A stretch of DNA of 64,000 nucleotides from Myxococcota bacterium (GTDB lineage Bacteria > Myxococcota_A > SURF-8 > G963663525), in the NCBI GenBank assembly GCA_963676915.2, contig CAXXVK010000067.1:32001-96000 (forward strand). The letters run 5' to 3'. Both the position numbers and the translations under genes were made by a program. Shown piece by piece: positions 22,051 through 59,391 of the stretch (its first letter is position 1; the number at the start of each line of letters is the position of its first letter). Below the pieces are notes generated by a model. The model searched no databases, was not told where the DNA came from, and worked only from the letters and a program-made list of their open reading frames with translations.

Positions 22051-23622
22051 ATGTCAACTGCAGATTTCATCGCTTATTCCATTGTTATCGGCGGAGTTCT
22101 CGCGTTTGCCGCGATTTTCTGGAGTTATTTCAAAGGACTGCGAAAATCTCCTCGCGACATGTGGTTCCTGTTCGGCTACAAATTCATCGAATATTCCGCC
22201 TACGGCGCGATGAATATGGCCATCATCCTCTGGTTGTCCAAAGACTGCGGCTTGGGGGATATCGTAGCGGGTAGCTACATTTCAGCCTGGTCGATGATGC
22301 TTTCGGTCATGGCGATGGTCGCCGGTGCGCTGGTCGATACCATCGGCATCAAACGAACATTGGTGATCAGCATCGTATTTTTGCTGATTTCCCGGTTCTT
22401 TATGGCCTTTGTCACCGATCCGGTCCTGGTTTTCTTCTTGGGATTTGTTCCGCTGGCGATCGGTTTTGCCATCGTCGGACCGCTTGTTTCGGTCGCGATC
22501 AAACGTTTCACGACAAAAGAAGGCGCCGCCCTGGGTTTCGGCTTGTTTTACGTGGTGATGAACATTGCTTACGCCGTCGGTGGCTGGTTGTTCGACTGGC
22601 TACGAGAAACTTTTGCAGAGCGCGATACTTTAGGCAAGATCATCAACGAAAACTTCGGTACCGAACTGATGGGAATGCATTTTACCACCTATCAGCTTTT
22701 CTTTGTCATGGGTTTCATTTTCACCCTGGGTAGCCTGTTCATCGCCATTTTCATTCGCGATGGCGTGGAAATGATGGATGACGGCGAGATCGTGGTTCAT
22801 CCTAAAACCGAATATGGCAGTGGACTTGAGTCTATTCGCAATGCCGCCATTGAAACCGCCAAAATGATCAAATCGGTCATTACGGAAAGATATTTCTGGA
22901 TTTTCTTGGGTATGTTGGCATTGACCCTGTTCGTTCGTTTTATTTTCTTCCATTTTCATTATACCTTCCCCAAATACGGCATTCGCGTCCTTGGCGAAGG
23001 AGCGAAAATCGGTTCGATTTACGGTGTCCTCAATCCGGTGCTAATCGTGTTTCTCGTGCCGCTGGTTGCCGCTTTTACGAAAAAAATCAGTTCGTACAAA
23101 ATGATGATCGTGGGGTCGGTTATTTCGGCTGGTTCGTGTTTCATCGCGACCATCCCCGCAGAAAGCCTTGCTCATTTGACCGATTCCGTTCTAGGCGAGT
23201 TGATTTTCATTAAATGGCTGGGAATGGCCGATACCATGGAAGCCTTGCTGCAGAATCCTCCCGTTCCCGAATACTGGCCGTTGATTTTCTTCATTACAGT
23301 GTTCACTGTGGGTGAAGCCATCTGGTCACCACGCCTGATGCAATTTACGGCGGAAATCGCACCGAAAGGAAAAGAAGGAACCTATATCGCTTTATCGGTG
23401 CTTCCTTTCTTCTTCGCAAAATTTGTGGTCGGGCCGATGTCGGGTTTGTTGTTGGATAAGTACGTTCCGGTAGACGAAGCCGGAAAGGCTATGGCTCCCT
23501 ATGCGGACCACCACATGGTGTGGATCTGGATCGGTGGCATGGCGATCTTCACTCCGATCGGGCTGCTGGTCTTCCGCAAGCTGTTCACACATAGCAACCC
23601 GGACGGCACCACAACGCTGTAA
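22051..23622 (+). CDS. MFS transporter (POT/PTR-like)
   Basis: FIEYSAY, FGLFYVVMNI, GEAIWSPR...IAPKGKEGTY; multiple TM helices. Confidence 0.85.
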   Translation: MSTADFIAYSIVIGGVLAFAAIFWSYFKGLRKSPRDMWFLFGYKFIEYSAYGAMNMAIILWLSKDCGLGDIVAGSYISAWSMMLSVMAMVAGALVDTIGIKRTLVISIVFLLISRFFMAFVTDPVLVFFLGFVPLAIGFAIVGPLVSVAIKRFTTKEGAALGFGLFYVVMNIAYAVGGWLFDWLRETFAERDTLGKIINENFGTELMGMHFTTYQLFFVMGFIFTLGSLFIAIFIRDGVEMMDDGEIVVHPKTEYGSGLESIRNAAIETAKMIKSVITERYFWIFLGMLALTLFVRFIFFHFHYTFPKYGIRVLGEGAKIGSIYGVLNPVLIVFLVPLVAAFTKKISSYKMMIVGSVISAGSCFIATIPAESLAHLTDSVLGELIFIKWLGMADTMEALLQNPPVPEYWPLIFFITVFTVGEAIWSPRLMQFTAEIAPKGKEGTYIALSVLPFFFAKFVVGPMSGLLLDKYVPVDEAGKAMAPYADHHMVWIWIGGMAIFTPIGLLVFRKLFTHSNPDGTTTL

Positions 23623-23693
23623 CCTGTCGAGTTCCTTCGGCTTCGTTTACGCGAGGCCGAAGAAAATTCAGATGCATTGACGAAATCTTGGAA

Positions 23694-26195
23694 TCAGTGA
23701 ATCGGATACGTGATTTTCTCGGCTGATTCCGGCAGGTTGTCCAAAAACGTTCTGTTTCGCTCAACCCACTGAAAAAGCCTATCGAGTTCTTCTCCATTGA
23801 GGCGATACAAGGCGATGTCTACCTCTGGAATCCAGGGACCGAGGTTTTCGATGTATCCACCGTCCGAGTACCGCCGATTCACGAAATGCGATTGCACGAC
23901 GGGCGGGGTTTTCGCCACACGGCGGACGGCTTCGCAGAGGGGATCGAGGTCCATGACTCGTGGGACGTGATAGCAACCCATTCCGAAATAAAAATAGACA
24001 TCCTTGTAATTTCTAGGTTTTTCGAAGAATTTCCCGAAATCCGCGAGCAACAGTTTCTTTCCTTCGAGATACGCCGCCCCCTGCAAAAGGTCGGCTGTGC
24101 GGAACAGTCGCTCGGTCGTGACGATTCCGCCGGGTTGTCCCGAGTATCGGCTGTCTGAGATCAGCAGGTGGCTGTCATTGGGTAGGACTTCGACCATGCG
24201 TTGCACGAATTCCGTTTCATTCTGGATATTGTGCCGTGTATCGGCGGTGAAACGCCTGTGCGTGACCAACGGGGATAACAAACAAGCCGCCAGAGCTACG
24301 GCCAGCGCCGCACGCAAATGCCCTTTCAGAGGGAGATTTTCGAGGAAAAATGCTGCTCCGACTCCGACTGATACGCACAGCAGCACCAGATAGCTCAGTT
24401 GGTACCGCAATCCTTCGGCCAGAATCAAGCCCGACTGGATGAGAATCAGTTGCGTTCCAAAGCCTGGAAGCAGCAAAAGCAGTGGTAATGCCACGGGAAT
24501 ATTTCGTTGAGTTCCCAAGGCTTTCGGGAGCAAAGAAAGGAGCCATAACGGGAAAAACACGAGGGGATAAAGCCCCACATCCATCCAGTAATTCCAATAC
24601 TCGCTTAACCATCCGTATTTTAGTCCGGTCGGCATATTGAAAGTTGTAACGAAAGGATACGGAACAAGTGGGTTGGGAGTTGCAACCAGCAACGGTCCTA
24701 GCCCCCGCGAGATCACAGCAAACAGCATCGTGGTCGTCAACGTGATGACGAATGCGATCCACAGCCAGCGACTGCGGGGCCATCGAGAAAATGCGGTGCG
24801 ACTGGACAGCGCCAACAGACCGAATGCCGTACACGTCACGGCGAAACTCAGCAGAATGGAAAAGAAATGACGCCTCGTTTCGGGATCGACGGTGTTCAGG
24901 TCGTTCGTCATCAAATAAAGATGCGGGAAAAGAAACAGAATCGAAACGAGTAACAAAGGCCAGCGTTTCAACAGGCGTCCCAAGGCATTTCGTTCGAGAA
25001 TCATGAAAAACTGAATCATCCCCGCCATCGCCGCCACGGTGGACGACTCTCCCCGACACTGCACGAACAGAAGCAGCGTGCAAAGAAACAAGGCAAGGTC
25101 CAGATTCTTGTCGCGCTCCAGCCAGGCGAGAAGATGCGCGAAACTCGCGGCCAACAACAGGCCCGCCATCGGACCGATCACAAGACCGTTGGAGAAGAAA
25201 ATCAGCGGTGGAAAAGCCAGAACGGCCAGGGCGGAAAAACTGCCTCCCCAAACGGTTCCGCTCAAGCGCCGACCGGCGGCATACGCGGGAATCACAGCCA
25301 GCGCACCCACCACGGCGTTTGCGGTGAATACCAACCGGCTGGAAGGTCCGAAAAGCTGCATCAGCAGATACAACGGCAGACGATAGGTGGGTTTGTAGCC
25401 CTGCCCGAGGTATACGTCCCAACCCTCAAAAGTCCAGATCGCCATGTCTTTGAGGTGGGTGAAATCTCCATGCCCGGAACCAATCGGCAACCGTTCTGAT
25501 GACAGTAGCCGAACCGCAAGTGCTGCCACGAAAAAGAAAGCCATTACGAGGAGTTCCCTCGTTTTTCCGTGCTTGATTCCACCTGCGAGAAGCCATGCAA
25601 GTCCCAATAGATAAAATGCCCAGACCGCCAGGATGACGATCTTGTTGACCAGAAACATCGGTTGATGATCGATGCCGTGATGGGGAAATGGCGTGAAAAT
25701 GTTCTGTTCGTTCGGTTGCAGTCGTTTGCGAAGATCGGGGCGAAGATCGGCGATGTTGCGGGCTTGTGTCGTGACGAATTCCGGGCATTTGTACAAATGA
25801 GGATCTTCCCCGAGACGGTTCAACGTGTCCTGAATGGCCTGATCCCACCTTGTTTTGTCGGTCGCATTGGAAGTGATTTCCGAAGAGGTCGCCAAATCTT
25901 TGCTATCGAGAATTCCGAACCAGACCAATGCTTTGGGTGGTCCTTCGGTTTCTCCGAGCAAAAGAATGGCGCCTTCTTGCGCCTTTTCCACATGTTGAAC
26001 CGGGAGGTTTCGTTCCTTCAGATGATCGGCCAGCGTCGAGAAATCGCAAGGAGATGTTGAATTCTGCGCCCAGGATTCTTGTGGCTGTGAAGCGATCGTT
26101 AGTAACAACGTTACCGCCAGCAACCAAAGGAATCCGAAGCGAAAAACGGGGAATTTGCTGCGATATTTCGCGTTTTTTCGCAACATCTCGGTCAT
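23694..26195 (-). CDS. Multi-TM glycosyltransferase-like protein (GT-C/ArnT-PMT-like)
   Basis: Many TMs with LAVRL, NAVVGALAV, QCRGE, LRY motifs; ATG overlaps the TGA of the upstream gene (ATGA). Confidence 0.6.
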   Translation of the reverse strand: MTEMLRKNAKYRSKFPVFRFGFLWLLAVTLLLTIASQPQESWAQNSTSPCDFSTLADHLKERNLPVQHVEKAQEGAILLLGETEGPPKALVWFGILDSKDLATSSEITSNATDKTRWDQAIQDTLNRLGEDPHLYKCPEFVTTQARNIADLRPDLRKRLQPNEQNIFTPFPHHGIDHQPMFLVNKIVILAVWAFYLLGLAWLLAGGIKHGKTRELLVMAFFFVAALAVRLLSSERLPIGSGHGDFTHLKDMAIWTFEGWDVYLGQGYKPTYRLPLYLLMQLFGPSSRLVFTANAVVGALAVIPAYAAGRRLSGTVWGGSFSALAVLAFPPLIFFSNGLVIGPMAGLLLAASFAHLLAWLERDKNLDLALFLCTLLLFVQCRGESSTVAAMAGMIQFFMILERNALGRLLKRWPLLLVSILFLFPHLYLMTNDLNTVDPETRRHFFSILLSFAVTCTAFGLLALSSRTAFSRWPRSRWLWIAFVITLTTTMLFAVISRGLGPLLVATPNPLVPYPFVTTFNMPTGLKYGWLSEYWNYWMDVGLYPLVFFPLWLLSLLPKALGTQRNIPVALPLLLLLPGFGTQLILIQSGLILAEGLRYQLSYLVLLCVSVGVGAAFFLENLPLKGHLRAALAVALAACLLSPLVTHRRFTADTRHNIQNETEFVQRMVEVLPNDSHLLISDSRYSGQPGGIVTTERLFRTADLLQGAAYLEGKKLLLADFGKFFEKPRNYKDVYFYFGMGCYHVPRVMDLDPLCEAVRRVAKTPPVVQSHFVNRRYSDGGYIENLGPWIPEVDIALYRLNGEELDRLFQWVERNRTFLDNLPESAEKITYPIH

Positions 26196-29100
26196 GTCCG
26201 CCCTTTTTTCTTTGCCAGTTTTCCTTTGACGGCCCCGAATCGTCGTTTCAAACCGAAACGTTTCCGTTTTTCGCCTGTTGCTCGTGGATGTTCTCGCAGC
26301 CCGAGCCATTCCTGGTCCAGATTTCGGCATTTGCGCGGAAGTGGTCGCTCCAGACGTTCACCCTGGGCGACCATCTCCCGGACGGTCGCCAACAAGGCGT
26401 CCATCGCCTGTTTTACCTGTGCTTCGCTGATATTCGGCCCGAGATAAAGGCGAAGCGTTTCTCCCTTGAACGGTCCGTATCCACTCCCTATCGTAACGCG
26501 ATTTTCCAGTCGTTCGCGCAGGCGGGATACTTCGATGTCTACCCCCAGCAGATGCGCCAGCACCCCGGAGCGATCCTCGACACGCTGTACCGCTTGCACG
26601 AGATGCGGCGTATTTTCGATGGCTTCTTGCACCACTTTCATTTTGCGTTCCGTCTCTTTTTGGATGGAACGCAAACCGCCTCGTTCGAGGTAGTCTTCCA
26701 ACGCTTCACCCAGTTGGAGAATACCTCGTAAGTTATGGTAGTGACCGGCAAACTGCTCTTTCTCCATTTGAGGAAACGTTCGATAGACCATGGCGACATC
26801 TTCGGGGCTGCGTTCGCTTTCTCGTCGTCTGGCCACTTCCATCGCTTTCGGGGAAACGATCAGCACGCCCAACCCGGCGGGACAACCCATGAATTTCTGT
26901 ACCGAGCCGAAATACACGTCGATGTCTTTCCATTCCCGTCGCAGATATCCGAATTCGCTGGTGCCGTCCACGATGAAGAGAAACGGATCTGTTGTGGCAC
27001 GTTTTCGTTTGATTTTTCCTGGTTTATTCACCCGGTTGCGAATCGCCTGGATGAGTGCCCCAACATCGGTTTGTACCGCCGTGCTCGTTTCGTGTCCCGT
27101 GATGAAAAAACCGACGCTCCGGTCCGACCGCTTCAGATTGGACGCGGGAAGTTTGCTCAACATTTCCGAGGCGATGGACTGTAGCTGGCCGTTCTCACCT
27201 TCTCCCCAACGTAATCGTACCGATTTGACACGCCCCGTACCGAAACGGCGGGCGACATCCAGCATTCGTTCTCCGAACGCTCCTTTGACTCCCACGATTC
27301 CGAAATCCACATCGAGACTTTCGACCGTCTGTTCCATGGCCTGCGTGGCGGAACCGGTGAAGAAGATGCTGTAATTTTTCGGAAGATTCAGGTACTTGCG
27401 CAAGAGGCTTTCGACTTCCAAAGCGGCTTGTTTACGAGCTTCGGGTTGCCCGGTGAGATCTGCAAGGCGGCGCTCGGTTTCCATGCTGCGTTTAAGTATC
27501 CGCCGGTTGATTTGTGCCGGACCGGGGTTGAGCGTGAAAAAATCTTGCTGGTTCCGAAGCCGTTCTTTCGCCTTTTCAGGAGAGAGAGAAGATGTCTGTC
27601 CCAACGCCAGCGCCACGCGACATCCCAACTCGGCAATCGCCTGTATTTTGGGTGTTTCAAGCGTTTCGTGTGGGCGCTCGTCCATTTCGAGCAGAGAATG
27701 CATGTAACCGATTTGATTGCGGCTGGCGGTTTTTCGAGCCACTTCCAAAGTTTCGGCATGACAGACGAGCAGCCCCAGTTCTTCCTGCAGGCCGAAAAGC
27801 TCGCCCGAAAACACAAAGGCAGCCGCTTTACGACGCATCGCCGCCGAAGGACGTTCTAGAGTTTGCATGACCAGGATTTTGTGAATCTCGGTCCAGGCGG
27901 GATCGTCCAGAAGTTTTGGGTTGTTGGTTGCGACGGCTTGAACTTCGGCGGGGGGCTGGTGTTGTTCTTTGTCGCGCAAGTCCAACGCAACGCCGCCTTT
28001 TCGGCGATTGACCAACGCTTTGAAACAGGCGACCACCGCTTTTTCTGTCGAATCGGTGAAAAACACCCGTTCGTCGGGTTCCAGACCCAGCCATTCGCGC
28101 AGCAATCCCAGAGTTTCGGACAAGATTCGCATGCCTTCCGGGCTACGGTGAGAATGCTGGCACCATAGCAAAATCGAAGTATGCAACCGAGCGATAGCCG
28201 GTGCGGAGGTCGGTAGCGACGGGTCCGAGGCGAAAGCGTTGAGAATGCCATGCTCCAGGCGTGGCGGGTGTGCGTGCAGTTTCAAGCGACTCGTTGCGCC
28301 GAACGTCCTTCCTCCATAGGTTTGTGTGTACCGGTACAGTTCTTCGGTTCGTTCCGGGTCGCGTCGCTCCAGCCAGCGTGCATACGCTGTGGAAAGGTGT
28401 TTTTCACCCGGTTCGAACTCGATACCGAACTGTCCGTGCAGGCTTTCGAGGTGTTTTATGAGCGTTTTTTTGCGATCTTGCAGAAAAACGTAGGCTTCTG
28501 AGGCGCGCTTGCGGGTGTCCTCGTCCTCGCCTTCGAGAAAATATGTGGCACGAATGTGGGGATCGATTCCCCCGCTGACGGCTTCCTGCACCATGCCGGG
28601 ATGAGCATGCCCGTAAATGTAGACACGGAACTGACGGTCCCGCAGATCCTGAACGTAGGCCCAGTACACTTCCATCACGGCCTTGTAGGCTCGTTCACGC
28701 AGGGCGGGATCGTCGCCGGTAATTCTGCAATTGAAGTCGGTTGAGGTGGTGAACCCCTTCCATTTCGAGGCTCGGGTCATCTCGGGAATGGCTTCGCGCA
28801 TTCGTTTTAACGCACGCATTTCGCTGGGCAGGAAATACACGATATCTTCGTCCGCGTCGTCGTCGTGATCGTCCGAGCGGTAGATGTCCCGCCACTTCTG
28901 CAAACCGCGAATCGCGGCGAAAAGGTTGTCAGGTTCTTCACGACCTTCCGGCGGTTCTTCGAACAGCGCTTCGAGAAGGTCGATCATTTCGTCCTCGGAC
29001 ACGTCGGTGGTGCAGTTGACCAACAGCCCGATATGGCATTTCGCATCGCGCATGGTTTCCAATAGACTGCCGATGCGACCGCGTTCTTCGCTGTCTTCCC

Positions 29101-30151
29101 GCAAACTGCCATAGGTGGCGCGTAACTCGTCGCGGGTGATGATCTCGAATCCTTTGAGCAATACCTGTCCTCGTGCCGCGACCAGTTTTCGACCGTCGGG
29201 GGAGTCTTGAAACACGGCACGGGCGTAGGGATCGAGCACCGACATCACGCGGGGCAGATGGTTGACCATCCCCGCGTACTGTTTGCCGATACCACCGGGA
29301 AGCGGAATGAAAAAGCCGAATTCGTTGACACCCTCTCGAATGACTTCGAGCGTCACCTCCGTAACCAGTCCGGCGCTACCGCTTAGGCCGACTTGCATTT
29401 TCGCCTCGTCGCCTTTCAGACGGCGCACCATGCCGGAGCCGTCTACCAGCGTGACGGCATGCAGGTTGAAGCGGGCGTTGGCGCGTACCGGTCCCTGGCT
29501 GCCGTTGCAGACCACCGCGCCGATCTGGGCCTGGTTGAAGGTGGTCAGATCGAGAAAGACCGAATGACCCGCCCCCAGAATGTCCACTAGCGCTTCGTTG
29601 ATTTCGGCGGGCGTCAATCCTGCCCAGGCACGTACGCGATGGTTGATCGACGGGTTGTGACTTCGGTATACGACCACTTTGTTTTTTAGAGTCGGTGAAT
29701 CGGGAACGACGGCTTCGAACACTTCACTATCGACGGCATCTTGAAGGGAAACATTTTCCAAACGACCGTTGGGATGCACCAAAAGACCTACAAACCCTTT
29801 CAATCCGTGCAATTTCGCTTTTTTCTGCACCTGAAAAGCCCCGACCGCGCTTGTCAGACTGCCGATGGCTATGGCACCGAAATTTTCTTCATGGGCTATC
29901 GATACGGTTTTTTTTGCGTCTTCGGTGCTTTTGATACGAACCAGACAATGGCTTTCCACTGGCTTGCCGGAATCGTCGTACAGGTTTTCTTCATAGGGCG
30001 TGAAACCGGCCTGTCGATACAGGCTTTGTATCCGTTCCCAATCTCTATCATCTTCGAAAAGAAAGGGTTTCCCTGGCGTTCGTCGTTTGTGCGGCCGTAG
30101 TTTGGCCAGCCGGGTTTCCCATTTCGCCCATTGTTTTCGGCGCTTGTTCAT
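26192..30151 (-). CDS. Fusion: FAD-linked hydroxy-acid dehydrogenase (VAO/PCMH fold) + degenerate SerC-like domain + class V PLP aminotransferase
   Basis: FAD part: IGSLTSAVG, QIGAVVCNGSQGP, GLSGSAGLVTEVTL, YGHAH...DPH, GEKH; middle part: SHRS, ETP; C-terminal part: NPGP, GSATQAME, HETST, VDGTS, SVQK, GYG...LR; RBS GGGAGA before ATG 30151. Confidence 0.8.
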   Translation of the reverse strand: MNKRRKQWAKWETRLAKLRPHKRRTPGKPFLFEDDRDWERIQSLYRQAGFTPYEENLYDDSGKPVESHCLVRIKSTEDAKKTVSIAHEENFGAIAIGSLTSAVGAFQVQKKAKLHGLKGFVGLLVHPNGRLENVSLQDAVDSEVFEAVVPDSPTLKNKVVVYRSHNPSINHRVRAWAGLTPAEINEALVDILGAGHSVFLDLTTFNQAQIGAVVCNGSQGPVRANARFNLHAVTLVDGSGMVRRLKGDEAKMQVGLSGSAGLVTEVTLEVIREGVNEFGFFIPLPGGIGKQYAGMVNHLPRVMSVLDPYARAVFQDSPDGRKLVAARGQVLLKGFEIITRDELRATYGSLREDSEERGRIGSLLETMRDAKCHIGLLVNCTTDVSEDEMIDLLEALFEEPPEGREEPDNLFAAIRGLQKWRDIYRSDDHDDDADEDIVYFLPSEMRALKRMREAIPEMTRASKWKGFTTSTDFNCRITGDDPALRERAYKAVMEVYWAYVQDLRDRQFRVYIYGHAHPGMVQEAVSGGIDPHIRATYFLEGEDEDTRKRASEAYVFLQDRKKTLIKHLESLHGQFGIEFEPGEKHLSTAYARWLERRDPERTEELYRYTQTYGGRTFGATSRLKLHAHPPRLEHGILNAFASDPSLPTSAPAIARLHTSILLWCQHSHRSPEGMRILSETLGLLREWLGLEPDERVFFTDSTEKAVVACFKALVNRRKGGVALDLRDKEQHQPPAEVQAVATNNPKLLDDPAWTEIHKILVMQTLERPSAAMRRKAAAFVFSGELFGLQEELGLLVCHAETLEVARKTASRNQIGYMHSLLEMDERPHETLETPKIQAIAELGCRVALALGQTSSLSPEKAKERLRNQQDFFTLNPGPAQINRRILKRSMETERRLADLTGQPEARKQAALEVESLLRKYLNLPKNYSIFFTGSATQAMEQTVESLDVDFGIVGVKGAFGERMLDVARRFGTGRVKSVRLRWGEGENGQLQSIASEMLSKLPASNLKRSDRSVGFFITGHETSTAVQTDVGALIQAIRNRVNKPGKIKRKRATTDPFLFIVDGTSEFGYLRREWKDIDVYFGSVQKFMGCPAGLGVLIVSPKAMEVARRRESERSPEDVAMVYRTFPQMEKEQFAGHYHNLRGILQLGEALEDYLERGGLRSIQKETERKMKVVQEAIENTPHLVQAVQRVEDRSGVLAHLLGVDIEVSRLRERLENRVTIGSGYGPFKGETLRLYLGPNISEAQVKQAMDALLATVREMVAQGERLERPLPRKCRNLDQEWLGLREHPRATGEKRKRFGLKRRFGAVKGKLAKKKGRT

Positions 30152-30459
30152 ACGTCTCCCCACTCGAACGAGATGATTTATCCCGCATGTTTCATGCTTC
30201 GTTCGAAAGTGTACTGTAAGCCACGGCTGGTGGTCCAATATCTTTTCGCCAAACTCGCCAAAAGAATGCACCGAAAAACACCAAAATGTTAAAAATTCGT
30301 TTGAAATTTTACCTTCTTTACCTTTATACTTAAACTTTAATGGTGTATATTAATTATAAATATAAATAGGTACACCACGTAGCCGGAGAAAATGCGGGTA
30401 CGCATTGCTTTTTATTGACATTTAGGCTTGCCGTCATTATGCGTGCAGGAAAGTTGACC

Positions 30460-30729
30460 ATGCCGGAATCCATCACAGAATTCAAGCATGAATCCATTCA
30501 GGATCGAAAATCCATCGTAAAATACTTGAAAACCCTCTGGGAAGGCATCGACAACGGCCGTATCGCTTTTCACAGCGAGGAAGACGAGATCGAACTCATT
30601 CCCCCGGACCTGATGAACCTCAAGCTTCGGGTCGTTCATGCCGAGGACCGCTCGAAAATCATTTTGCAAATCGGCTGGAAACCCAATGAAGGCAAAGAAA
30701 AGCCCGGCAACCTGATCGTCAGGACGTAA
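30460..30729 (+). CDS. Amphi-Trp domain protein
   Basis: FKHES...YLKTL..GI..G...; terminal strand ILQIGW. Confidence 0.8.
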   Translation: MPESITEFKHESIQDRKSIVKYLKTLWEGIDNGRIAFHSEEDEIELIPPDLMNLKLRVVHAEDRSKIILQIGWKPNEGKEKPGNLIVRT

Positions 30730-30735
30730 CCCGCC

Positions 30736-32409
30736 ATGCCTCCTTTACGTGCACTTAGAGAAAATTTCAGTCTGATGGTGGTCGAGGTCGGCAAGCAGGT
30801 CGAAGAAACCCGTTTCGCCTTGACCGACTGGGACGGCAGCCTCGGAGAAAGCATTCTCAATCGGGACGATTACATCGACCGCATGAAGGATTTCATCACC
30901 CGCAACGTGTTTCGCAAGCTGGCGGAATCGCGTGATTTCGACAAATCTGTGGTCAAAATTCTCCAGGCGGGAATCGTCATCGTCAACAACCTCGAAAACA
31001 TCGCAGACTTTTGCACGAACATCGTCGGCCAGATTTGCCATCTTGGCGACCCGGATTTCCTGGATCGCTACGATTTCAAACTGCATTTTCATTATGTCAA
31101 TAAAGCGTTGTCCATCGTCGAAAAGACACTGTTTACTCAGGATCTGGATGCGGCTCTGGAAATCTGCAAATGCGAATTTGCCTTGGATGATCTGTATAAA
31201 AAGGACTTTCAAAGCATTTTGCAACAGCTTCAAAACTGTTCGTCGGAAGATCCCAAAGAAAACCCTGCGCAAAAGCTGGTTACGGCTCTGTTGATTTTCC
31301 GTTATCTCGAACGAATGGGCGATTGTCTGCTGAATATCGGCGAGGCGATCATCGAATCCGTGATCGGAGAAAAGCTCAAAATTCACCAGTATTTAGCGCT
31401 GCGCAACAGTTTCGACGTCAGCAGCGACGCCTCCTCGCCGGGAATTCCTGTTCACCACACCCATTTCGAAACCATCGGCGAAACCCGATCGGGTTGTCGT
31501 ATCGGGCGCGTTCGTCAACCCACCACGGATCAACACAGCCACTGGGCGATTTTCAAGGACGGAAATCTTGGAAAACTGACGCGGGAAAAGGAGAACATCG
31601 AAACTTGGGAACGCCTTTGTCCTGGCTTACCTCCGAAACTGTTCGGTTTTCAGCCGAAAGGCAACTATGCCTCGCTGTTGTTGGAATATTTGGGCGGCAT
31701 CAATTTTCAGGAAATCATTCTGGAACCCGATTCCAACCTGCTGGCCGATGGCATGAACCAGTTGAAAAAACTGCTGGAAGTGCTTTGGGAGATGACCTGG
31801 CGGGACGAACCCGCTCAAGCCGGTTTCATGGAGCAGCTTCTCGACCGCCTGTCAAGCGTCTATCGGTTGCATCCTGCCTTCAATACCGCCACTGCCGGAA
31901 TCAACGATTTGGAGTTGCCGTCGACGCATCGGTTGATACAGGAATTGAACGATATCGAGCGAACGCTTTTTGCGCCGTTTTCCGTTTTCATTCATGGGGA
32001 TTTCAACATCGACAATATCCTGTACGACAGCAAGCAAAAGAAAATCAACTTCATCGATCTGAATCGCTCTACACAAACGGATTACGTGCAGGATATCTCC
32101 ATTTTCCTCGTGTCGGCCTTTCGCTTGCCGCTTTTCGAAAACCGGCACCGCCTGCGCCTGAATTTCGTTTCCGACAGTTTGTATGATTTTTCCAAAGGAT
32201 TTGCCGAACGTCACGGCGACGCGGAGTTCGATACCCGACTTGCGTTAGGGTTGATCCGTTCTTTCGTAACCTCCACCCGCTTCGTGGTGCACCCGCGTTT
32301 TGCCAAAGACATGTTTTTACGAGCGCAATTTCTGATGGAAAAACTGCTCGACCATCGGGGGCGTCCCTGGTCGGAATTTGTCCTGCCACGTTCCATTTTA
32401 GTGTACTGA
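30736..32409 (+). CDS. PhoU-domain + aminoglycoside-phosphotransferase-like kinase fusion
   Basis: Two PhoU repeats (LENIAD; YLERMGD...NIGE); ETRSGC; IHGDFNIDN and FID kinase motifs. Confidence 0.85.
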   Translation: MPPLRALRENFSLMVVEVGKQVEETRFALTDWDGSLGESILNRDDYIDRMKDFITRNVFRKLAESRDFDKSVVKILQAGIVIVNNLENIADFCTNIVGQICHLGDPDFLDRYDFKLHFHYVNKALSIVEKTLFTQDLDAALEICKCEFALDDLYKKDFQSILQQLQNCSSEDPKENPAQKLVTALLIFRYLERMGDCLLNIGEAIIESVIGEKLKIHQYLALRNSFDVSSDASSPGIPVHHTHFETIGETRSGCRIGRVRQPTTDQHSHWAIFKDGNLGKLTREKENIETWERLCPGLPPKLFGFQPKGNYASLLLEYLGGINFQEIILEPDSNLLADGMNQLKKLLEVLWEMTWRDEPAQAGFMEQLLDRLSSVYRLHPAFNTATAGINDLELPSTHRLIQELNDIERTLFAPFSVFIHGDFNIDNILYDSKQKKINFIDLNRSTQTDYVQDISIFLVSAFRLPLFENRHRLRLNFVSDSLYDFSKGFAERHGDAEFDTRLALGLIRSFVTSTRFVVHPRFAKDMFLRAQFLMEKLLDHRGRPWSEFVLPRSILVY

Positions 32410-50931: not shown

Positions 50932-52103
50932 CGGTTGCGACGGGTCTGGATCGCTGGCTGAACGGTTCGGTTGACCTCCCGGGACACCGGGCCGCAGTAT
51001 TGTGTCACGCCGCGAGTGTAGACCGTCGTCTGAGGCATATCGTCAATCTCATTGGTGAAGATTCCCGCCTGGAAATCGTTCGCATCCTGGGACCGGAACA
51101 CGGGTTTCTGGGGGCGGCACAGGATATGGAGCCGGTTGAAGGCGGTTTCGTCTGGCGGGGCATTCCTGTCACCAGTCTTTATGGATTTACGGAAAAAGAA
51201 CTAAAGCCGACGCCCGAGGATTTCGATGGGGCGGATTTCCTGCTTGTGGATTTGCAGGATGTCGGTTCTCGCTATTACACCTATGCCGCCACCATGGCTT
51301 TTTGCATGGAAACGGCGGCGGATATCGGCTTGCCGGTTGTCGTGTTGGACCGTCCCAATCCCATCGGGGGGCGCATCGAAGGTTTTTCCCTGGAGGAAGC
51401 ATTTCGCTCTTTTGTGGGAATTTTGCCGGTCCCGACACGTCATGGCCTGACGATCGGTGAGTTGGCAAAGGTGGTCCATGGTGAAATGCGACCCGATGTG
51501 CAGCTTCAGGTCGTTGATATGGAGGGTTGGCAGCGCTCGATGTATTTCGAGCAAACCGGCTTGCCCTGGGTCATGCCTTCGCCCAATATGCCGACGGTGG
51601 ACACGGCTGTGGTCTATCCGGGAGGTTGCCTGCTGGAAGGCACCAATCTGTCCGAGGGACGTGGCACTACCCGTCCGTTCGAACTGTTTGGCGCACCTTG
51701 GCTCGATGTAGATCGAATCTTGGCGAAATTGTCTGACGAGGATCTGCGAGGATGCGCGCTTCGGACGGTGGAGTTTCTTCCGACGTTCCAGAAATGGGCC
51801 GGGAAATCCTGCCGGGGATTTCAGCTTCATGTTACCGACCGAGAACGTTTCGACTCGATTCGCACCTATTTGGCGCTGCTTGTCGCGATTTTTCAGGTTC
51901 ATTCTTCCTCTTTCGCTTGGCGCAACGACGAATACGAGTTCGTCGGCGACCGGCTCGCCTTCGATCTGCTGATCGGTCACGACCGGGTTCGTTCCCGCCT
52001 TGAGGCGGGAGAAGGAATCGAAGCGTTGCTTGAGTTGTCGAAAGCCACGGTCGAAGCGTTCGCCGAATCCCGCAACCGTTATCTGATCTATCCCGAATCA
52101 TGA
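50928..52103 (+). CDS. namZ: Exo-beta-N-acetylmuramidase NamZ (DUF1343) family
   Basis: PEHG, SLYG, DLQDVGSRYYTY, DRPNP, RHGLTIGE, PSPNMPT, SEGRGT. Confidence 0.92.
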   Translation: MTVATGLDRWLNGSVDLPGHRAAVLCHAASVDRRLRHIVNLIGEDSRLEIVRILGPEHGFLGAAQDMEPVEGGFVWRGIPVTSLYGFTEKELKPTPEDFDGADFLLVDLQDVGSRYYTYAATMAFCMETAADIGLPVVVLDRPNPIGGRIEGFSLEEAFRSFVGILPVPTRHGLTIGELAKVVHGEMRPDVQLQVVDMEGWQRSMYFEQTGLPWVMPSPNMPTVDTAVVYPGGCLLEGTNLSEGRGTTRPFELFGAPWLDVDRILAKLSDEDLRGCALRTVEFLPTFQKWAGKSCRGFQLHVTDRERFDSIRTYLALLVAIFQVHSSSFAWRNDEYEFVGDRLAFDLLIGHDRVRSRLEAGEGIEALLELSKATVEAFAESRNRYLIYPES

Positions 52104-53422
52104 ATTCCACCCGCAACGCGCCTGGCACCGGGAAGACTTTTGGCCCCTATCGACTCGTTCAGTTGCTGGGACAGGGAGGGATGGCCAAGGTCTGGATGGC
52201 GCAAAAAAACGAGGCTTCGGGAATGTTGCCTCGTTTCGCGGTGAAAGTCATTCACGACCATTTAAGCGGTCAGGAACGCTTCCAGGATCTCTTTCAGCGT
52301 GAGGCACGGATTCACGTCGGATTGAACCACCCGAACCTCGTCAAAGCGTTCGAAGTGGTGCGAGAAGGTGATCGGCTGGCGCTTGTCATGGAGCTGCTGG
52401 ACGGCAGCCTCGATAACGTTACGGCGAAATGGACGCCGGAACAGGTTGCCGAAATGATTCGTCAGGCGGCCTTTGCACTGGATTACCTGCACCATCCGCC
52501 GGAGAAAGAGACACGTTCTCCCCTCATTCATCGGGATCTTTCACCTTCCAACCTGCTTCTCGATTGTTTCGGTACGTTGAAAATCGGGGATTTCGGGATT
52601 GCTCGGTTATCGTATAGCAGCGGACTGACTGCCTTTACTCCGGGAAAACCGTTTTACATGGCGCCGGAACAGTTCGAAGGTCAAGTAACCTCGGCGAGCG
52701 ATATTTATTCCTTGGGCGTGGTCGCACTGGAGAAATGGAAGGGTAGGGAACTTTTTCGTGGAGAGCAAAAGCGAGAGACGCGACACGAACGTACCCTGGA
52801 GGCCCTGGAAAGTCTCACCGCGATACATGAAGAGTTGGTGGGTCTGCTTCGTGAGATGCTGCAAAACGATCCGAAGAGCCGTCCCACAGCAGCCCGGATC
52901 GTCGAGCGGTTGTCTGCACCTCATTGGAAAGGCGATGCATTGGCGCTAAAAGGGATGGTAGCGAAGCGTAATCGCTCGCTCACCACGCCTTCCGCCTCTC
53001 CGGTTTCTTCGACACCGGTTATGGGGATCGGCAAACCTCCCAAAATGGAAGCCCCCAAAAACGAGGTAACGCCGACAGGAAAACGGCTGCGTTTTCCGGT
53101 GCTCGGGCTTATCCTGGTGGTTGTAGCGTTCTTCCTGTTTCTTTCCGTGCGATGGGGACAGAATGAAAGCGAAGCACCTCTTACCGGCTTCGGATCGGTT
53201 GTGGAAACCGTGACGCCGGAAATGTACGACGCCCTTGTGGTCGTCTCGGCAAAGACCCGGCACGATGTTTTTCTGGACGGCAAACCCGTTGGGGTTACTC
53301 CTGTCAACCTGCGATTGCCCGTTGGGCGGCATGTGGTGGCTGTCCGCAAGGGAGATCAACCCATGCGGAGCAAAACGTTTGTTGCCGTTCGTGGGGCCAA
53401 CGCAGAACTTTACTTCAAATAA
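52100..53422 (+). CDS. Membrane Ser/Thr protein kinase with PEGA domain
   Basis: GQGGMA, AVK, HRDLSPSN, DFG, YMAPE; single TM; LDGKPVGVTP. Confidence 0.92.
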   Translation: MNSTRNAPGTGKTFGPYRLVQLLGQGGMAKVWMAQKNEASGMLPRFAVKVIHDHLSGQERFQDLFQREARIHVGLNHPNLVKAFEVVREGDRLALVMELLDGSLDNVTAKWTPEQVAEMIRQAAFALDYLHHPPEKETRSPLIHRDLSPSNLLLDCFGTLKIGDFGIARLSYSSGLTAFTPGKPFYMAPEQFEGQVTSASDIYSLGVVALEKWKGRELFRGEQKRETRHERTLEALESLTAIHEELVGLLREMLQNDPKSRPTAARIVERLSAPHWKGDALALKGMVAKRNRSLTTPSASPVSSTPVMGIGKPPKMEAPKNEVTPTGKRLRFPVLGLILVVVAFFLFLSVRWGQNESEAPLTGFGSVVETVTPEMYDALVVVSAKTRHDVFLDGKPVGVTPVNLRLPVGRHVVAVRKGDQPMRSKTFVAVRGANAELYFK

Positions 53423-55380: not shown

Positions 55381-57465
55381 TTAGCCCATCCAGCGCAACA
55401 AAAGCACTTCGGCGAAAAAGATCAGCAATATCAAACCCATCAACGATCCTGCCCACTCGCTTCGCAGGTTGGCGTCATGACCTTGACCCATGGGGCTAAG
55501 ACTGCCGGACAATACGGCGAGATCGCCTGGTTCAACAGGCATCAAATCGGATTCTTCAGGCTCCAGACCGGCGGAGAATGTCGAGGTGTGGTTTTTATCT
55601 TGGATGCGCCAGATTCCCGGTTGATCGATAAACGGAATCAGCAGTTCGTCACCTGTCGGTTTGATTTCGGTTTTTGCGCCGTTGGGGGCGAAAACTTCGA
55701 TGTTTCCTTCCAGATTGGAACCAACGATAACGTGCTTCGAACCTACCGTAGCCACTCGGGGGATTCGGCTGTCCGTGCGACCGGACAGGTAATGGGCAAT
55801 TTCCTGCATAAGTGCCAAAAAGCCGGGTTGAATCGGTAGGTTGGTCCATTGGCGGTCCACAGTGGAGGTGTAAAGGATCGAACGACCGCTGCCATAAGGA
55901 ACTTCCACCAAAGCCGGTTGGTGGTTCGTGTATCGGGCGAGGATGGTTTTTGATTTCGCCGGTTCCGGGTCGTAAAGATAGTAGTGATCGAAGGTCGCGT
56001 GATACAGGCTGGCGGCGGTTTCCTCGTTGAATACACGAAAGACGGGATGACCGAAGGCCAGTTGGGAGAGGTTCAGTGCGGCGGCGTTTTCCTCCGATGC
56101 CGTGGCGATTCTCGCCGCCTTGGCTCCCCGAAGTCGTCCGGGAAGCATGGGGCTAAGACCTTCGTTCAGGTCGTCCACCGCCAGTTTTTCGCCGGTACTG
56201 ACGAACAACCCGCCGCCACCGTATACGAATTCCCTGATTCGCATGGCGGCGTCCAGCGGTAATAAGCTTAAATGGCAAAGGAAAATTACGTCGAAATCCT
56301 CGAACGTCATGCCGGGGAGCTGGTCTACCGTTATTTGTCGGACATGCACTTGGGAGCGACCATCTCCCCCCGGATCGAGGGCGCTGGCGAGGTAAAACGC
56401 TTCGTCTTTCAGGCGTATTGTGGATGGTTCCCCCGAGACGATCAGAGCGCGGACTTCTTTTCCTGTGTCGATAATCAGCGACCGTCGATTGTCTGGGGCA
56501 AGGGCGTCGTCGGGAAGACGAATCTCCAAGTTGACCAGTCCAGACGATGCGAAACCATGCACGAACTCTTTGACTTCTTTCGAACGCGGGGCAAGGTCCA
56601 AAAAGCCACCCGCTACCGTTTTGCCTTCGCTGAGCAGGCTGATGGGGTAGTTGTTGAGCGCAGTGGCTCCCCAGTTGGCGACGGTCGCTTGGATTGACCA
56701 CACCGGTAGACCGCCGACGTACGTTTTTTCGGCGGTTATATCTTCCACCGAAACGTTAGGCAGCGGTTGTCTGTCGCGTACGTCCACCGGAACCAACAAT
56801 GGATCGTCCGGGTTGCCGGGCAGGGGCGAGCTTTCGAGACGATAGCCCTTGGAAAAATCCCCTACAAGGTAGATCAATTTCATTTCCTGAGGAGAATCTC
56901 TCAGCAATGCCAGCGCTTTTTCGATACCCATGGAGAGATCCGTGGATAAAAAGCCGGGCGTGATGGTGTCGAGCGTGTTCAGCAAAAGACCACGGTCGAA
57001 GGTAAGCTCGGTGGCATCACGCGGTTCCGAGCGTGAAAACGGCACGATAGCCGCACGATCCGTGGTGGGAAAGCTCTGTACCAACTCGTAGCTTTTTTTC
57101 CTTGCCAGATCGAACAGACTGCGACCCTCGTGCATGGCCTGCATGCTCAAGGAGGTATCCAGCAGGATCACCCGGCTGGCGGGTTTATCTTGCAAGGCGG
57201 CGGTCTCTATGGCGTTTTCAGGTGCCGTGAATGGCCGAGAGACGATCAAAACGGCCAGAATAATCAGCAGAATTCGCAACAACAACAACAGGATTTGCTT
57301 GATTTTGATCGAACGTGCCAGCTTTTTGTTGGAAAGTTGCACGAAGCGGAACGCCGCAAAAGGAACGATGCGCGCCCGTCGGCGGTTGATCAAATGGATG
57401 ATGATCGGCAGGGAAGCCAACAGCAATCCAGCCAGCAATCCCGGATGAAAGAACCCGAAATTCAT
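55381..57465 (-). CDS. BatA-domain/VWA membrane protein
   Basis: LPIIIHL..R, LLLLLR, DTSLSM MIDAS motif, DN, GATase-like FVYGGGGL domain, C-terminal TM. Confidence 0.88.
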   Translation of the reverse strand: MNFGFFHPGLLAGLLLASLPIIIHLINRRRARIVPFAAFRFVQLSNKKLARSIKIKQILLLLLRILLIILAVLIVSRPFTAPENAIETAALQDKPASRVILLDTSLSMQAMHEGRSLFDLARKKSYELVQSFPTTDRAAIVPFSRSEPRDATELTFDRGLLLNTLDTITPGFLSTDLSMGIEKALALLRDSPQEMKLIYLVGDFSKGYRLESSPLPGNPDDPLLVPVDVRDRQPLPNVSVEDITAEKTYVGGLPVWSIQATVANWGATALNNYPISLLSEGKTVAGGFLDLAPRSKEVKEFVHGFASSGLVNLEIRLPDDALAPDNRRSLIIDTGKEVRALIVSGEPSTIRLKDEAFYLASALDPGGDGRSQVHVRQITVDQLPGMTFEDFDVIFLCHLSLLPLDAAMRIREFVYGGGGLFVSTGEKLAVDDLNEGLSPMLPGRLRGAKAARIATASEENAAALNLSQLAFGHPVFRVFNEETAASLYHATFDHYYLYDPEPAKSKTILARYTNHQPALVEVPYGSGRSILYTSTVDRQWTNLPIQPGFLALMQEIAHYLSGRTDSRIPRVATVGSKHVIVGSNLEGNIEVFAPNGAKTEIKPTGDELLIPFIDQPGIWRIQDKNHTSTFSAGLEPEESDLMPVEPGDLAVLSGSLSPMGQGHDANLRSEWAGSLMGLILLIFFAEVLLLRWMG

Positions 57466-58361
57466 CAGCCCCCCCTCGACAACAGAAAAGACAGCAACGT
57501 GCCTTCCACGGCGTCGTCCGTGCGTACGCGGCGATATTCGATGCCTCGGGAGCGGCAGTCCTTTGCCAACTGGTCGGCCCATCCAAGAAAGACTTTGAGG
57601 TATTCTTTGCGAATGGCTTCCGGGTCGGCCAGCAGGCGTTCGTCGCCCTCCATGTCCTCGAAAAGACTGAGATGTTCGAAACGGAAGTCCAACTCGTCCG
57701 GGTGCAGAACGTGAAACAGCACCACTTCGTTATGACGCGCTTTGAGTCGTGCAAGCATCTGTACGATGTCGGTTTCCGGGTCGAACAGGTCGCTGACCAC
57801 GATGATCAGGTTGCGTCCGTGCACGGTTTCCGCCAGAAAACGCAGTGGGGTTTTAAGGTCGGTTTCGCCTTCGGGAGAAAGTTCCACGAGGGTGTGTAGC
57901 AATTCCTGAAAATGACTGCTGGCCGAACGTGGAGGCATGTAGCGCAACACGCGGTCATTGAAGCCGAGCAGTGCCGGAGAATCCTGTTGGCGGATCAGCA
58001 GAAACGCCAGGGCGGCGGTCATTACTCTCGCATATTCGAGTTTGTTCGTGTCGTCGCTTCCATATCCCATGGAACCGGAGGCGTCGATCAGCAGATAACC
58101 GCGCAGATTGGTTTCATCTTCGAATTTTTTGACATAAAACCGGTCGAAACGTCCGTATGCCTTCCAGTCGATGTGCCGGGTGTCGTCGCCCTGGGAATAT
58201 TCCTTGTGTTCGGCGAATTCGATGGACGAGCCATGTTGGGGCGATTTGTGCAGTCCCGTCAACACGCCATCGACGACGCGGTTGGCCTTGAGTTGCAGAT
58301 TCTGCAAGCGGGCCAGCAACTCGGGTGTGAGCAGCAATTGATCCTGCACCGGGGCGGTCAT
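57465..58361 (-). CDS. DUF58 domain protein
   Basis: GLHKS..GSSIEFAEHKEY..GDD.RHIDWK, DASGSM, SDL. Confidence 0.95.
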   Translation of the reverse strand: MTAPVQDQLLLTPELLARLQNLQLKANRVVDGVLTGLHKSPQHGSSIEFAEHKEYSQGDDTRHIDWKAYGRFDRFYVKKFEDETNLRGYLLIDASGSMGYGSDDTNKLEYARVMTAALAFLLIRQQDSPALLGFNDRVLRYMPPRSASSHFQELLHTLVELSPEGETDLKTPLRFLAETVHGRNLIIVVSDLFDPETDIVQMLARLKARHNEVVLFHVLHPDELDFRFEHLSLFEDMEGDERLLADPEAIRKEYLKVFLGWADQLAKDCRSRGIEYRRVRTDDAVEGTLLSFLLSRGG

Positions 58362-58368
58362 GGAGAGA

Positions 58369-59391
<1,023 letters not shown>

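Follow-up and report, generated by a model that had tools for sequence, protein, structure and literature searches.

The closest well-described counterpart of the protein considered here is the homodimeric phosphoserine aminotransferase (SerC, or PSAT), represented by E. coli SerC and Arabidopsis PSAT1 (structures 6czx-6czz). In the Arabidopsis enzyme, the subunit with the cofactor pyridoxal 5'-phosphate (PLP) also contributes Lys265, His396/Arg397 and Arg403, and the other subunit binds the PLP phosphate through N306/T307. The phosphate of phosphoserine lies in a positive pocket formed by H110/R111 of the other subunit and H396/R397 of the PLP-holding one (PMC6043687, in part). The window analysed here, a stretch of 64,000 nucleotides from a Myxococcota bacterium (contig CAXXVK010000067.1), carries a minus-strand gene for a protein of 1,319 residues, in which a flavin-oxidase-like module is followed by two SerC-like domains in tandem. 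The protein resembles the SerC homodimer in its fold, in the lysine on an S-x-Q-K motif, the aspartate, the phosphate loop and the C-terminal arginine, and in having His-Arg and Thr-Pro loops of the kind that are supplied by the partner (PMC6043687, in part). It differs in that the partners are unequal domains of one chain, with one site and a fused flavin-type module. SerC carries the trans loops in every subunit, whereas here they occur in domain 1 only, with the lysine and aspartate in domain 2. The reading put forward, with a probability of about 0.72, is that the chain has one flavin site and one PLP site, the latter built from domain 2 and the His-Arg and Thr-Pro loops of domain 1.

Partnerships between an active fold-type-I unit and a lysine-less homologue have been described before. 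GcvP (GLDC) has two homologous fold-type-I halves in one chain, the N-terminal one lacking the lysine, and some prokaryotes make them as distinct alpha and beta subunits (PMC7259800, in part); it is, however, a decarboxylase of another family, with near-equal halves and no flavin module, and no sequence relation to it was found here. In SerTA (Ser4/Ser5 of Serratia sp. ATCC 39006) a lysine-less paralogous half acts as dimer mate of the active unit (PMC11726168, in part), but the two are unfused products of two genes, form a heterotetramer and belong to the sugar-aminotransferase class. The LCB1 and LCB2 subunits of serine palmitoyltransferase (SPT) are paralogous fold-type-I proteins, one with the PLP lysine, for which the model is a single site per heterodimer (PMC3794620, in part); they differ in that each is a subunit of its own, bound to the membrane, and their family is that of the alpha-oxoamine synthases. 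C. elegans CBS-1 is monomeric and has two homologous PLP modules in its chain, with PLP bound by the C-terminal one alone, but it is of fold type II, and complementary donation of trans loops is not described in the part of that account drawn on here (PMC3316156). The present protein has the feature common to GcvP, SPT and SerTA, namely two homologous fold-type-I units of which only one has the PLP lysine, and the inactive unit is predicted to be the dimer mate. The principle is already known from those three systems; what is seen here is a SerC-type variant of it in an uncharacterised family. Neither a flavin-oxidase/SerC-like fusion nor a SerC-type single-chain pseudo-dimer was found described in the open-access literature searched.

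As called by the program, the open reading frame (ORF) spans 26192..30271, with a GTG start at 30271. A database twin (P0002, 100% identical) and a second relative (P0003, 78% identical) both begin at the ATG at 30151, and the gene limits were therefore taken as 26192-30151, stop codon included. Residue numbers throughout are those of P0002, with the Met at 30151 as residue 1. The gene and its parts are:

26192..30151, minus strand: whole gene, 1,319 residues from ATG 30151, start as in P0002 and P0003
28280..30034, minus strand: N-terminal module, residues 40-624, with a predicted fold like that of FAD-linked (VAO/PCMH-type) D-2-hydroxyacid dehydrogenases
27548..28279, minus strand: domain 1, residues 625-868, a shortened SerC-like large domain with no lysine and no small domain
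26327..27547, minus strand: domain 2, residues 869-1275, a complete class-V (SerC-like) aminotransferase domain with large and small subdomains

The tandem SerC-like region (26350-28260) is part of this single gene, and domains 1 and 2 together account for only the C-terminal half of the protein. The earlier note on this DNA, made from the sequence alone, had described the two SerC-like domains correctly but missed the FAD-oxidase-like third module in front of them; it also began domain 1 at 28260, where the actual start is at about 28279. That the three-part gene is an artefact, either a fusion of neighbouring genes by a frameshift or assembly error or a decaying pseudogene, is in effect refuted. 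The 1,319-codon frame runs without interruption, 32 proteins of at least 1,000 residues share the same order of N-terminal module, domain 1 and domain 2, and the gene recurs at six loci in named genomes of two phyla; nothing was found in favour of an artefact, two members of the family (P0017 and P0021) being degenerate.

The motifs that define the two domains each occur once, on the minus strand and within the one frame, where they had been located from the sequence:

28142..28153, minus strand: domain-1 SHRS (Ser667-His668-Arg669-Ser670, residues 667-670), the trans-acting His-Arg loop, invariant in 11/11 sequences
27791..27811, minus strand: domain-1 FSGELFG (residues 781-787) at the S-x-Q-K-x-x-G position, with Leu instead of the Schiff-base Lys
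27650..27667, minus strand: domain-1 ETLETP (residues 829-834, with Glu832-Thr833-Pro834), corresponding to the Asn-Thr-Pro loop of SerC, invariant in 11/11 sequences
27518-27529, minus strand: domain-2 NPGP
27431..27466, minus strand: domain-2 loop at the SHRS position (LADLTGQPEARK), with the His-Arg lost; variable, and deleted in P0007 and P0008
27344..27355, minus strand: domain-2 GSAT, the PLP-phosphate loop at a helix start, invariant; aligns to E. coli SerC G75-G78
27266..27283, minus strand: domain-2 GAFGER, with F959 and R962 invariant
27080..27094, minus strand: domain-2 HETST, with H1020, E1021, T1022 and T1024 invariant
26957..26971, minus strand: domain-2 VDGTS, with Asp1062 as partner of the pyridine N1, invariant
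26894..26905, minus strand: domain-2 SVQK, with Lys1086 as Schiff-base lysine, invariant
26723..26737, minus strand: domain-2 HNLRG (residues 1139-1143) at the Asn-Thr-Pro position, with the Thr-Pro lost; in the predicted interface
26444..26482, minus strand: domain-2 GYGPFKGETLRLY, with GYG (26471-26482) where SerC has its second His-Arg, and the carboxylate-binding Arg1234
26444-26461, minus strand: ETLRLY, the part of this stretch with the carboxylate-binding Arg1234

Domain 1 keeps SHRS and ETLETP and has no PLP lysine, and domain 2 keeps NPGP, GSAT, HETST, VDGTS, SVQK and the C-terminal Arg and has neither SHRS nor the Thr-Pro motif, all as the earlier note had it. The small domain is likewise absent from domain 1, the profile of which covers only large-domain residues of relatives about 360 residues long, and the premise behind the comparison, that the SerC partner supplies the His-Arg pair and the Thr of the Asn-Thr-Pro loop, is borne out by Arabidopsis PSAT1 (PMC6043687, in part).

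Domain 1 was not recognised in a Pfam scan, and its assignment comes from profile comparisons. In an alignment of 11 family sequences, domain 1 matches domain 2 over 155 colinear columns (hhalign, E 6.8e-5, probability 63.6%), pairing FFTDSTEKA with FFTGSATQAM and FVFSGELFG...LLV with VYFGSVQKFMG...LIV. When a domain-1 profile made from seven sequences taken from DNA references was compared with PDB sequences, there were eight matches at E<=10, the top five of them phosphoserine or class-V aminotransferases (3ffr at 2.1e-4; 3qbo, 5yd2, 5yb0 and 2dr1 at 0.11 to 0.34), with the SHRS region aligned position 42 to position 42. Among 1.84 billion representative proteins the same profile found 64 at E<=0.001: 24 of at least 1,000 residues, seven fragments or short records, and 33 stand-alone SerC-like proteins of 330-380 residues, the best of which scored E 1.8e-10. 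The matches to the 33 stand-alone proteins, with E from 1.8e-10 to 9e-4, each consist of two colinear stretches, with profile positions ~43-92 on residues ~31-85 and ~112-241 on ~135-275. This two-stretch coverage indicates that domain 1 corresponds to a large domain that lacks about 50 internal residues, with no small domain at all. In the AlphaFold model it is an alpha/beta domain with six strands. One of the 24 long proteins, P0053 (1,518 residues), which matches the domain-1 profile in 11 short stretches, was set aside as an unrelated repetitive protein. In a joint MAFFT alignment, S43-H44 of domain 1 (Ser667-His668) fall on S40-H41 of E. coli SerC, and E208-T209-P210 on N239-T240-P241, which we take to be the functional residues of that enzyme.

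Domain 2 is a complete class-V aminotransferase domain, which Pfam Aminotran_5 (PF00266) recognises at 45.4 bits against a cut-off of 21.5. Its best solved sequence relative is 3ffr_A (E 1.5e-17), and 3ffr is also the best Foldseek match (E 2e-22; template-modelling (TM) score 0.89, normalised to the target) of an AlphaFold model of residues 625-1275, computed from a seven-row alignment with a predicted local distance difference test (pLDDT) score of 86.1 and a predicted TM score (pTM) of 0.89. From the alignment with E. coli SerC (hhalign), Phe959 would occupy the position of the Trp that stacks on PLP, and Arg962 that of Lys174 in Arabidopsis PSAT1 (PMC6043687, in part). The protein 3ffr (CHU_0995 of Cytophaga hutchinsonii) and others of its kind, such as P0027, are stand-alone 'SerC' proteins of about 360 residues and the closest relatives of both domains; they have the E-T-P-N and G-Y-G...R motif variants in common with the present protein, and differ in having all motifs within one domain. 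The replacement of the second His-Arg by GYG is accordingly found in 3ffr and stand-alone relatives as well. The HNLRG loop, at the position of the lost Thr-Pro, has an invariant His1139, Arg1142 and Gly1143 in the close family (in the wider family, His in 13/33 and Arg in 18/33) and, going by the predicted interface, would face the vestigial pocket of domain 1.

The complementary loss of motifs extends across the family, which was taken as 33 members (32 fetched proteins of at least 1,000 residues plus P0023) in which the modules were located with local hidden Markov models. Domain 1 has the His-Arg in 31/33 and the Thr-Pro in 30/33, and a lysine at the Schiff-base column in 1/33. The corresponding figures for domain 2 are 0/33, 0/33 and 30/33, with the Asp and the carboxylate-binding Arg, which were counted in domain 2 only, each present in 31/33. 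The domain-1 His-Arg is absent from P0017 and P0021, the domain-1 Thr-Pro from these two and P0054, and the domain-2 Lys from P0021 and from two truncated records (P0014 and P0017). In the 33 stand-alone relatives, by comparison, the Lys, Asp and Arg are each present in 33/33, the Thr-Pro in 31/33 and the His-Arg in 31/33 within the alignment window, the SHRS of the remaining two being visible in the raw sequence; with all motifs kept in one domain, these proteins are presumably ordinary homodimers. At the level of sequence, the homology of both domains to SerC-like proteins and the complementary conservation are shown, and the pattern supports the view that domain 1 keeps what a SerC subunit lends and domain 2 what a subunit owns.

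This pattern also bears on the alternative that domain 1 is a mere spacer or docking piece, with domain 2 homodimerising between chains and a site that works without trans loops. Heavy shortening and invisibility to Pfam would suit a spacer, but it is precisely the trans-acting motifs that domain 1 retains (31/33 and 30/33) and domain 2 has lost (0/33 for both), the stand-alone relatives keep these motifs too, and the predicted interface described below uses the loops that carry them. Mean column identity in matched seven-sequence alignments is 65% for domain 1 and 57% each for domain 2 and the N-terminal module; domain 1, conserved at least as well as domain 2, is by this measure not drifting or decaying. 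A spacer role is very unlikely.

A few members depart from the common pattern. P0008 (L004, 9822-10565) has YSAEKFG in domain 1, the sole lysine at the Schiff-base column among the 33 and probably a chance occurrence. P0017 (1,110 residues) and P0021 (1,448 residues) are degenerate: both have lost the domain-1 His-Arg and Thr-Pro, P0021 is also without the domain-2 Lys, and the record of P0017 stops soon after domain 2 begins. The two are perhaps pseudo-enzymes without activity, or else badly called genes. P0023 (648 residues) lacks the flavin-type module: only 11 residues precede domain 1, and domain 2 follows. It may be a fragment or a truncated gene call; a complete P0023 would mean that the tandem PLP module can also occur by itself.

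Structure prediction places the two domains against one another. When domain 2 and domain 1 were submitted as separate chains, with domain 1 as the scored partner, each of three runs gave an interface score (ipSAE) of 0.85, and the best of three controls gave 0.00; at least 87% of the contacts were common to the runs and the pLDDT of the partner was at least 83. On the domain-1 side the interface (domain numbering) includes residues 40-44 (CQHSH), among them His668, and 207-214 (LETPKIQA); on the domain-2 side it includes 65-69 (GSATQ), S215, Q217, which adjoins Lys218 (Lys1086), and 223-226. The SH(R) and ETP loops of domain 1 are thus predicted to pack on the GSAT and S-x-Q-K loops of domain 2. 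Of the interface residues, 16/37 from domain 1 and 16/39 from domain 2 align to interface residues of the partner, which points to a pseudo-two-fold contact. The ipSAE mark was reached by 58/80 solved complexes and by 2/110 mismatched pairs. Several points weigh against taking this prediction at face value. These counts hold only roughly with custom seven-row alignments. Solved SerC homodimers exist, so the score may reflect the predictor's memory of them; it shows likeness to such a dimer and not binding. Arg669 is not among the touching residues listed, and residues outside that list are uncertain.

The predictions also do not separate pairing within a chain from pairing between two chains. 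In a domain-swapped dimer, domain 1 of one chain would pair with domain 2 of another to give two composite sites per dimer. The complex prediction, run with two separate chains, is blind to the choice between cis and trans, and FAD-linked D-2-hydroxyacid dehydrogenases are commonly dimers, which would favour a swap. Against it, residues 625-1275 modelled as a single chain form one confidently predicted body (pTM 0.89), and the short linker from the last helix of domain 1 to the NPGP of domain 2 is modelled without any low-confidence stretch. A swapped arrangement is therefore considered improbable.

Under the preferred arrangement, with the composite site formed within a single chain, the two SerC-like fold-type-I domains would pack like the subunits of a SerC homodimer. 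The sole cofactor site would lie in domain 2 and consist of Lys1086, Asp1062, Gln1085, Ser-Ala-Thr 934-936, Thr1022, Phe959 and Arg1234. Domain 2 has lost both loops that are normally lent to the partner subunit. Domain 1 keeps exactly these lending loops but has shed its lysine, its entire small domain and some of the PLP-binding core; its His668-Arg669 would bind the anionic end of the substrate and its Thr833-Pro834 the PLP phosphate.

The FAD-oxidase-like module is the strongest clue to function. The fold assignment comes mainly from structure comparison: the AlphaFold model of residues 40-624 (pLDDT 80.2, pTM 0.81) is matched by Foldseek to the lactate dehydrogenase of the Ldh-EtfAB complex (7qh2_C, E 6.2e-17) and to human D2HGDH (6lpn_A, E 1e-15). 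Further matches are D-lactate dehydrogenases, mouse LDHD and alkyl-dihydroxyacetonephosphate synthase (AGPS), with target-normalised TM scores of 0.54-0.69. Pfam FAD_binding_4 (PF01565) reaches only 20.5 bits in the window protein, below the cut-off of 26.4; it is above the cut-off in 4/18 relatives scanned (P0034 at 31.2, P0052 at 34.7, P0054 at 33.1 and P0062 at 26.8) and is precomputed for 7/13 homologues. A language-model look-up of the module scored 0.96 to FAD_binding_4 clusters. The predicted fold of residues ~40-624 thus resembles that of FAD-linked D-2-hydroxyacid dehydrogenases.

The best functional analogy for a flavin-PLP fusion is the succession of PdxR and SerC. PdxR, an FAD-linked 4-phosphoerythronate dehydrogenase of the GlcD family, yields a phosphorylated 2-oxo acid that is transaminated by a SerC-type enzyme in vitamin B6 synthesis (PMC9997740, in part); these are separate proteins, and the likeness drawn here is one of function. 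By this analogy the flavin module may take a D-2-hydroxy acid whose distal group is anionic, either phosphate or carboxylate, and oxidise it to the 2-oxo acid, which the PLP module would then transaminate to the amino acid, in parallel to PdxR or SerA followed by SerC. The presence of His668/Arg669, the invariant Arg962 and Arg1234 suggests that the substrate carries another anionic group besides a carboxylate. The retention of SHRS had been read in the earlier note as pointing to a phosphorylated substrate. SHRS is indeed retained and offers a lead, but GYG stands where true SerC has its second His-Arg pair, and phosphate as the distal group therefore stays a lead only. The second His-Arg cluster of SerC also binds the glutamate carboxylate.

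Several results tell against so specific a function. Of the SerC equivalogs (TIGR01364, TIGR01365, TIGR01366 and NF003764), serC_1 scores highest, with 42.3 bits where the cut-off is 443.6, and NF003764 scores 34.5 bits against 253 (whole protein); SerC's second His-Arg pair is replaced by G-Y-G-P in domain 2. In the N-terminal module, His515, His532 and Glu583 are invariant, but the alignment to E. coli GlcD is insignificant (hhalign probability 0.5%), and the GEHG-type motif aligns to a non-conserved GxxGI. The N-terminal profile had no relevant match among PDB sequences, the sole one (E 0.82) being unrelated. No conserved gene neighbour pointing to a pathway was found in a comparison of the six related loci with the window.

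The low equivalog scores, which extend to models other than those of SerC, would also suit a tandem PLP module that is a sensor or regulator of the oxidase, or that carries out another class-V chemistry (lyase or desulfurase-type), with no coupled transaminase. Class-V desulfurases and lyases do appear among the weaker matches of the stand-alone relatives. The PLP-binding residues and the carboxylate-binding Arg are nevertheless all conserved, and by sequence as well as by fold the best matches are all aminotransferases, which makes such a non-transaminase role unlikely. A more far-reaching version of the coupled scheme, possible though rather doubtful, is that the chain is a replacement for the dehydrogenase and SerC pair of the phosphorylated serine or the vitamin B6 pathway. 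Flavin oxidation of D-3-phosphoglycerate or 4-phosphoerythronate would then sidestep the unfavourable NAD-linked step, and the 2-oxo acid would be passed directly to the single-site SerC-like pseudo-dimer of the same chain.

The history of the tandem was examined with an IQ-TREE 'quick' tree of 94 rows (30 of domain 1, 30 of domain 2, 33 stand-alone proteins and E. coli SerC as outgroup), from which P0014, P0017 and P0021 were left out as truncated or degenerate. Domain 1 forms one clade (SH-like approximate likelihood-ratio test, SH-aLRT, 99) and domain 2 another (100), and both split the proteins identically into 19 and 11, showing that the domains diverged together. The tandem therefore arose once, before the split into two subclades. 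The tree leaves the sisterhood of domains 1 and 2 unsettled, the domain-1 branch having a length of 2.04 and domain 2 joining six stand-alone proteins at only 82; an internal duplication is neither shown nor excluded. The central proposal of the earlier note, one composite intramolecular site with each copy keeping the half that it contributes, is supported on computational grounds by the complementary pattern, the conservation of domain 1, the two-domain model and the interface. The stand-alone relatives are SerC-like, the eight examined scoring 78-155 bits against SerC cut-offs of 253-443.

Homologous genes were found at six loci in contigs of one genome per species. One is in a Myxococcota metagenome-assembled genome (MAG), with 55% identity, and the other five are in Peregrinibacteria or Peribacteria MAGs, with 38-40% identity. 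The more distant subclade of 11 proteins (P0029, P0034, P0038, P0039, P0045, P0048, P0049, P0052, P0054, P0062 and P0068) is made up of chains of 1,388-1,567 residues, with the three modules and an extra 170-190 residues beyond domain 2. In their domain 2, H-K-T replaces H-E-T in 9/11, P0048 having H-E-T and P0049 Q-K-T.

Immediately downstream of the enzyme gene lies a second ORF:

23694..26195, minus strand: polytopic membrane protein of 833 residues, the ATG of which overlaps the TGA of the enzyme gene (ATGA)

The two are probably co-transcribed. No terminator-like site was found between them, and a promoter and terminator scan of 23400-30800 gave nothing beyond the shuffled expectation. 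The membrane protein has no match in a Pfam scan; a language-model look-up (0.97, 166 shared features) gives a lead only towards a PMT_2 / GT-C glycosyltransferase-like protein. It adjoins the homologue in 0/6 related loci and is not a conserved partner. A BLASTP comparison of the ORFs of the six loci with the window found no common neighbour except housekeeping dnaK-like and grpE-like genes, which flank the homologue in three Peribacteria/Peregrinibacteria loci and lie 35 kb away in the window. In these three (L002, 231-7433; L003, 5747-12252; L006, 5278-12248) the enzyme gene is on the opposite strand and splits the usual grpE-dnaK pair, and the DnaK-like gene is 55-56% identical to that at 61531-63363 of the window.

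Divergent from the enzyme gene, at 30415-32409 on the plus strand, are genes for an Amphi-Trp domain protein of 104 residues and a protein of 557 residues in which two PhoU domains are joined to an APH/choline-kinase-like phosphotransferase domain, an unusual fusion. Further along, at 55381-59391 on the minus strand, a MoxR-type AAA ATPase, a DUF58 protein and a BatA/VWA protein stand in a row resembling a BatA-type aerotolerance operon. This row, a eukaryote-like Ser/Thr kinase (52100-53422) and an RHS-repeat protein (59602-61287) are ordinary content of a large bacterial genome. Rfam gave no matches over the whole 64,000-nucleotide window.

On the preferred reading, of a single chain with one flavin site and one composite PLP site, the family would be a clean natural case of subfunctionalisation of dimer halves, in which a symmetric homodimer became an asymmetric single chain, each copy shedding what the other contributes. 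The stand-alone relatives preserve the ancestral state for comparison, the pattern of loss reads out which SerC-type residues matter to the partner subunit, and the protein could serve as a natural template for single-chain, single-site PLP enzymes. If the replacement of a dehydrogenase and SerC pair were true, it would mean an unrecognised route to phosphoserine or 4-phosphohydroxythreonine in reduced-genome Peregrinibacteria and some Myxococcota. More generally, this is a flavin-plus-PLP family of about 1,300 residues in bacteria of the candidate phyla radiation, and with the many gaps in the amino-acid and cofactor metabolism of that group, its substrate could fill a pathway hole.

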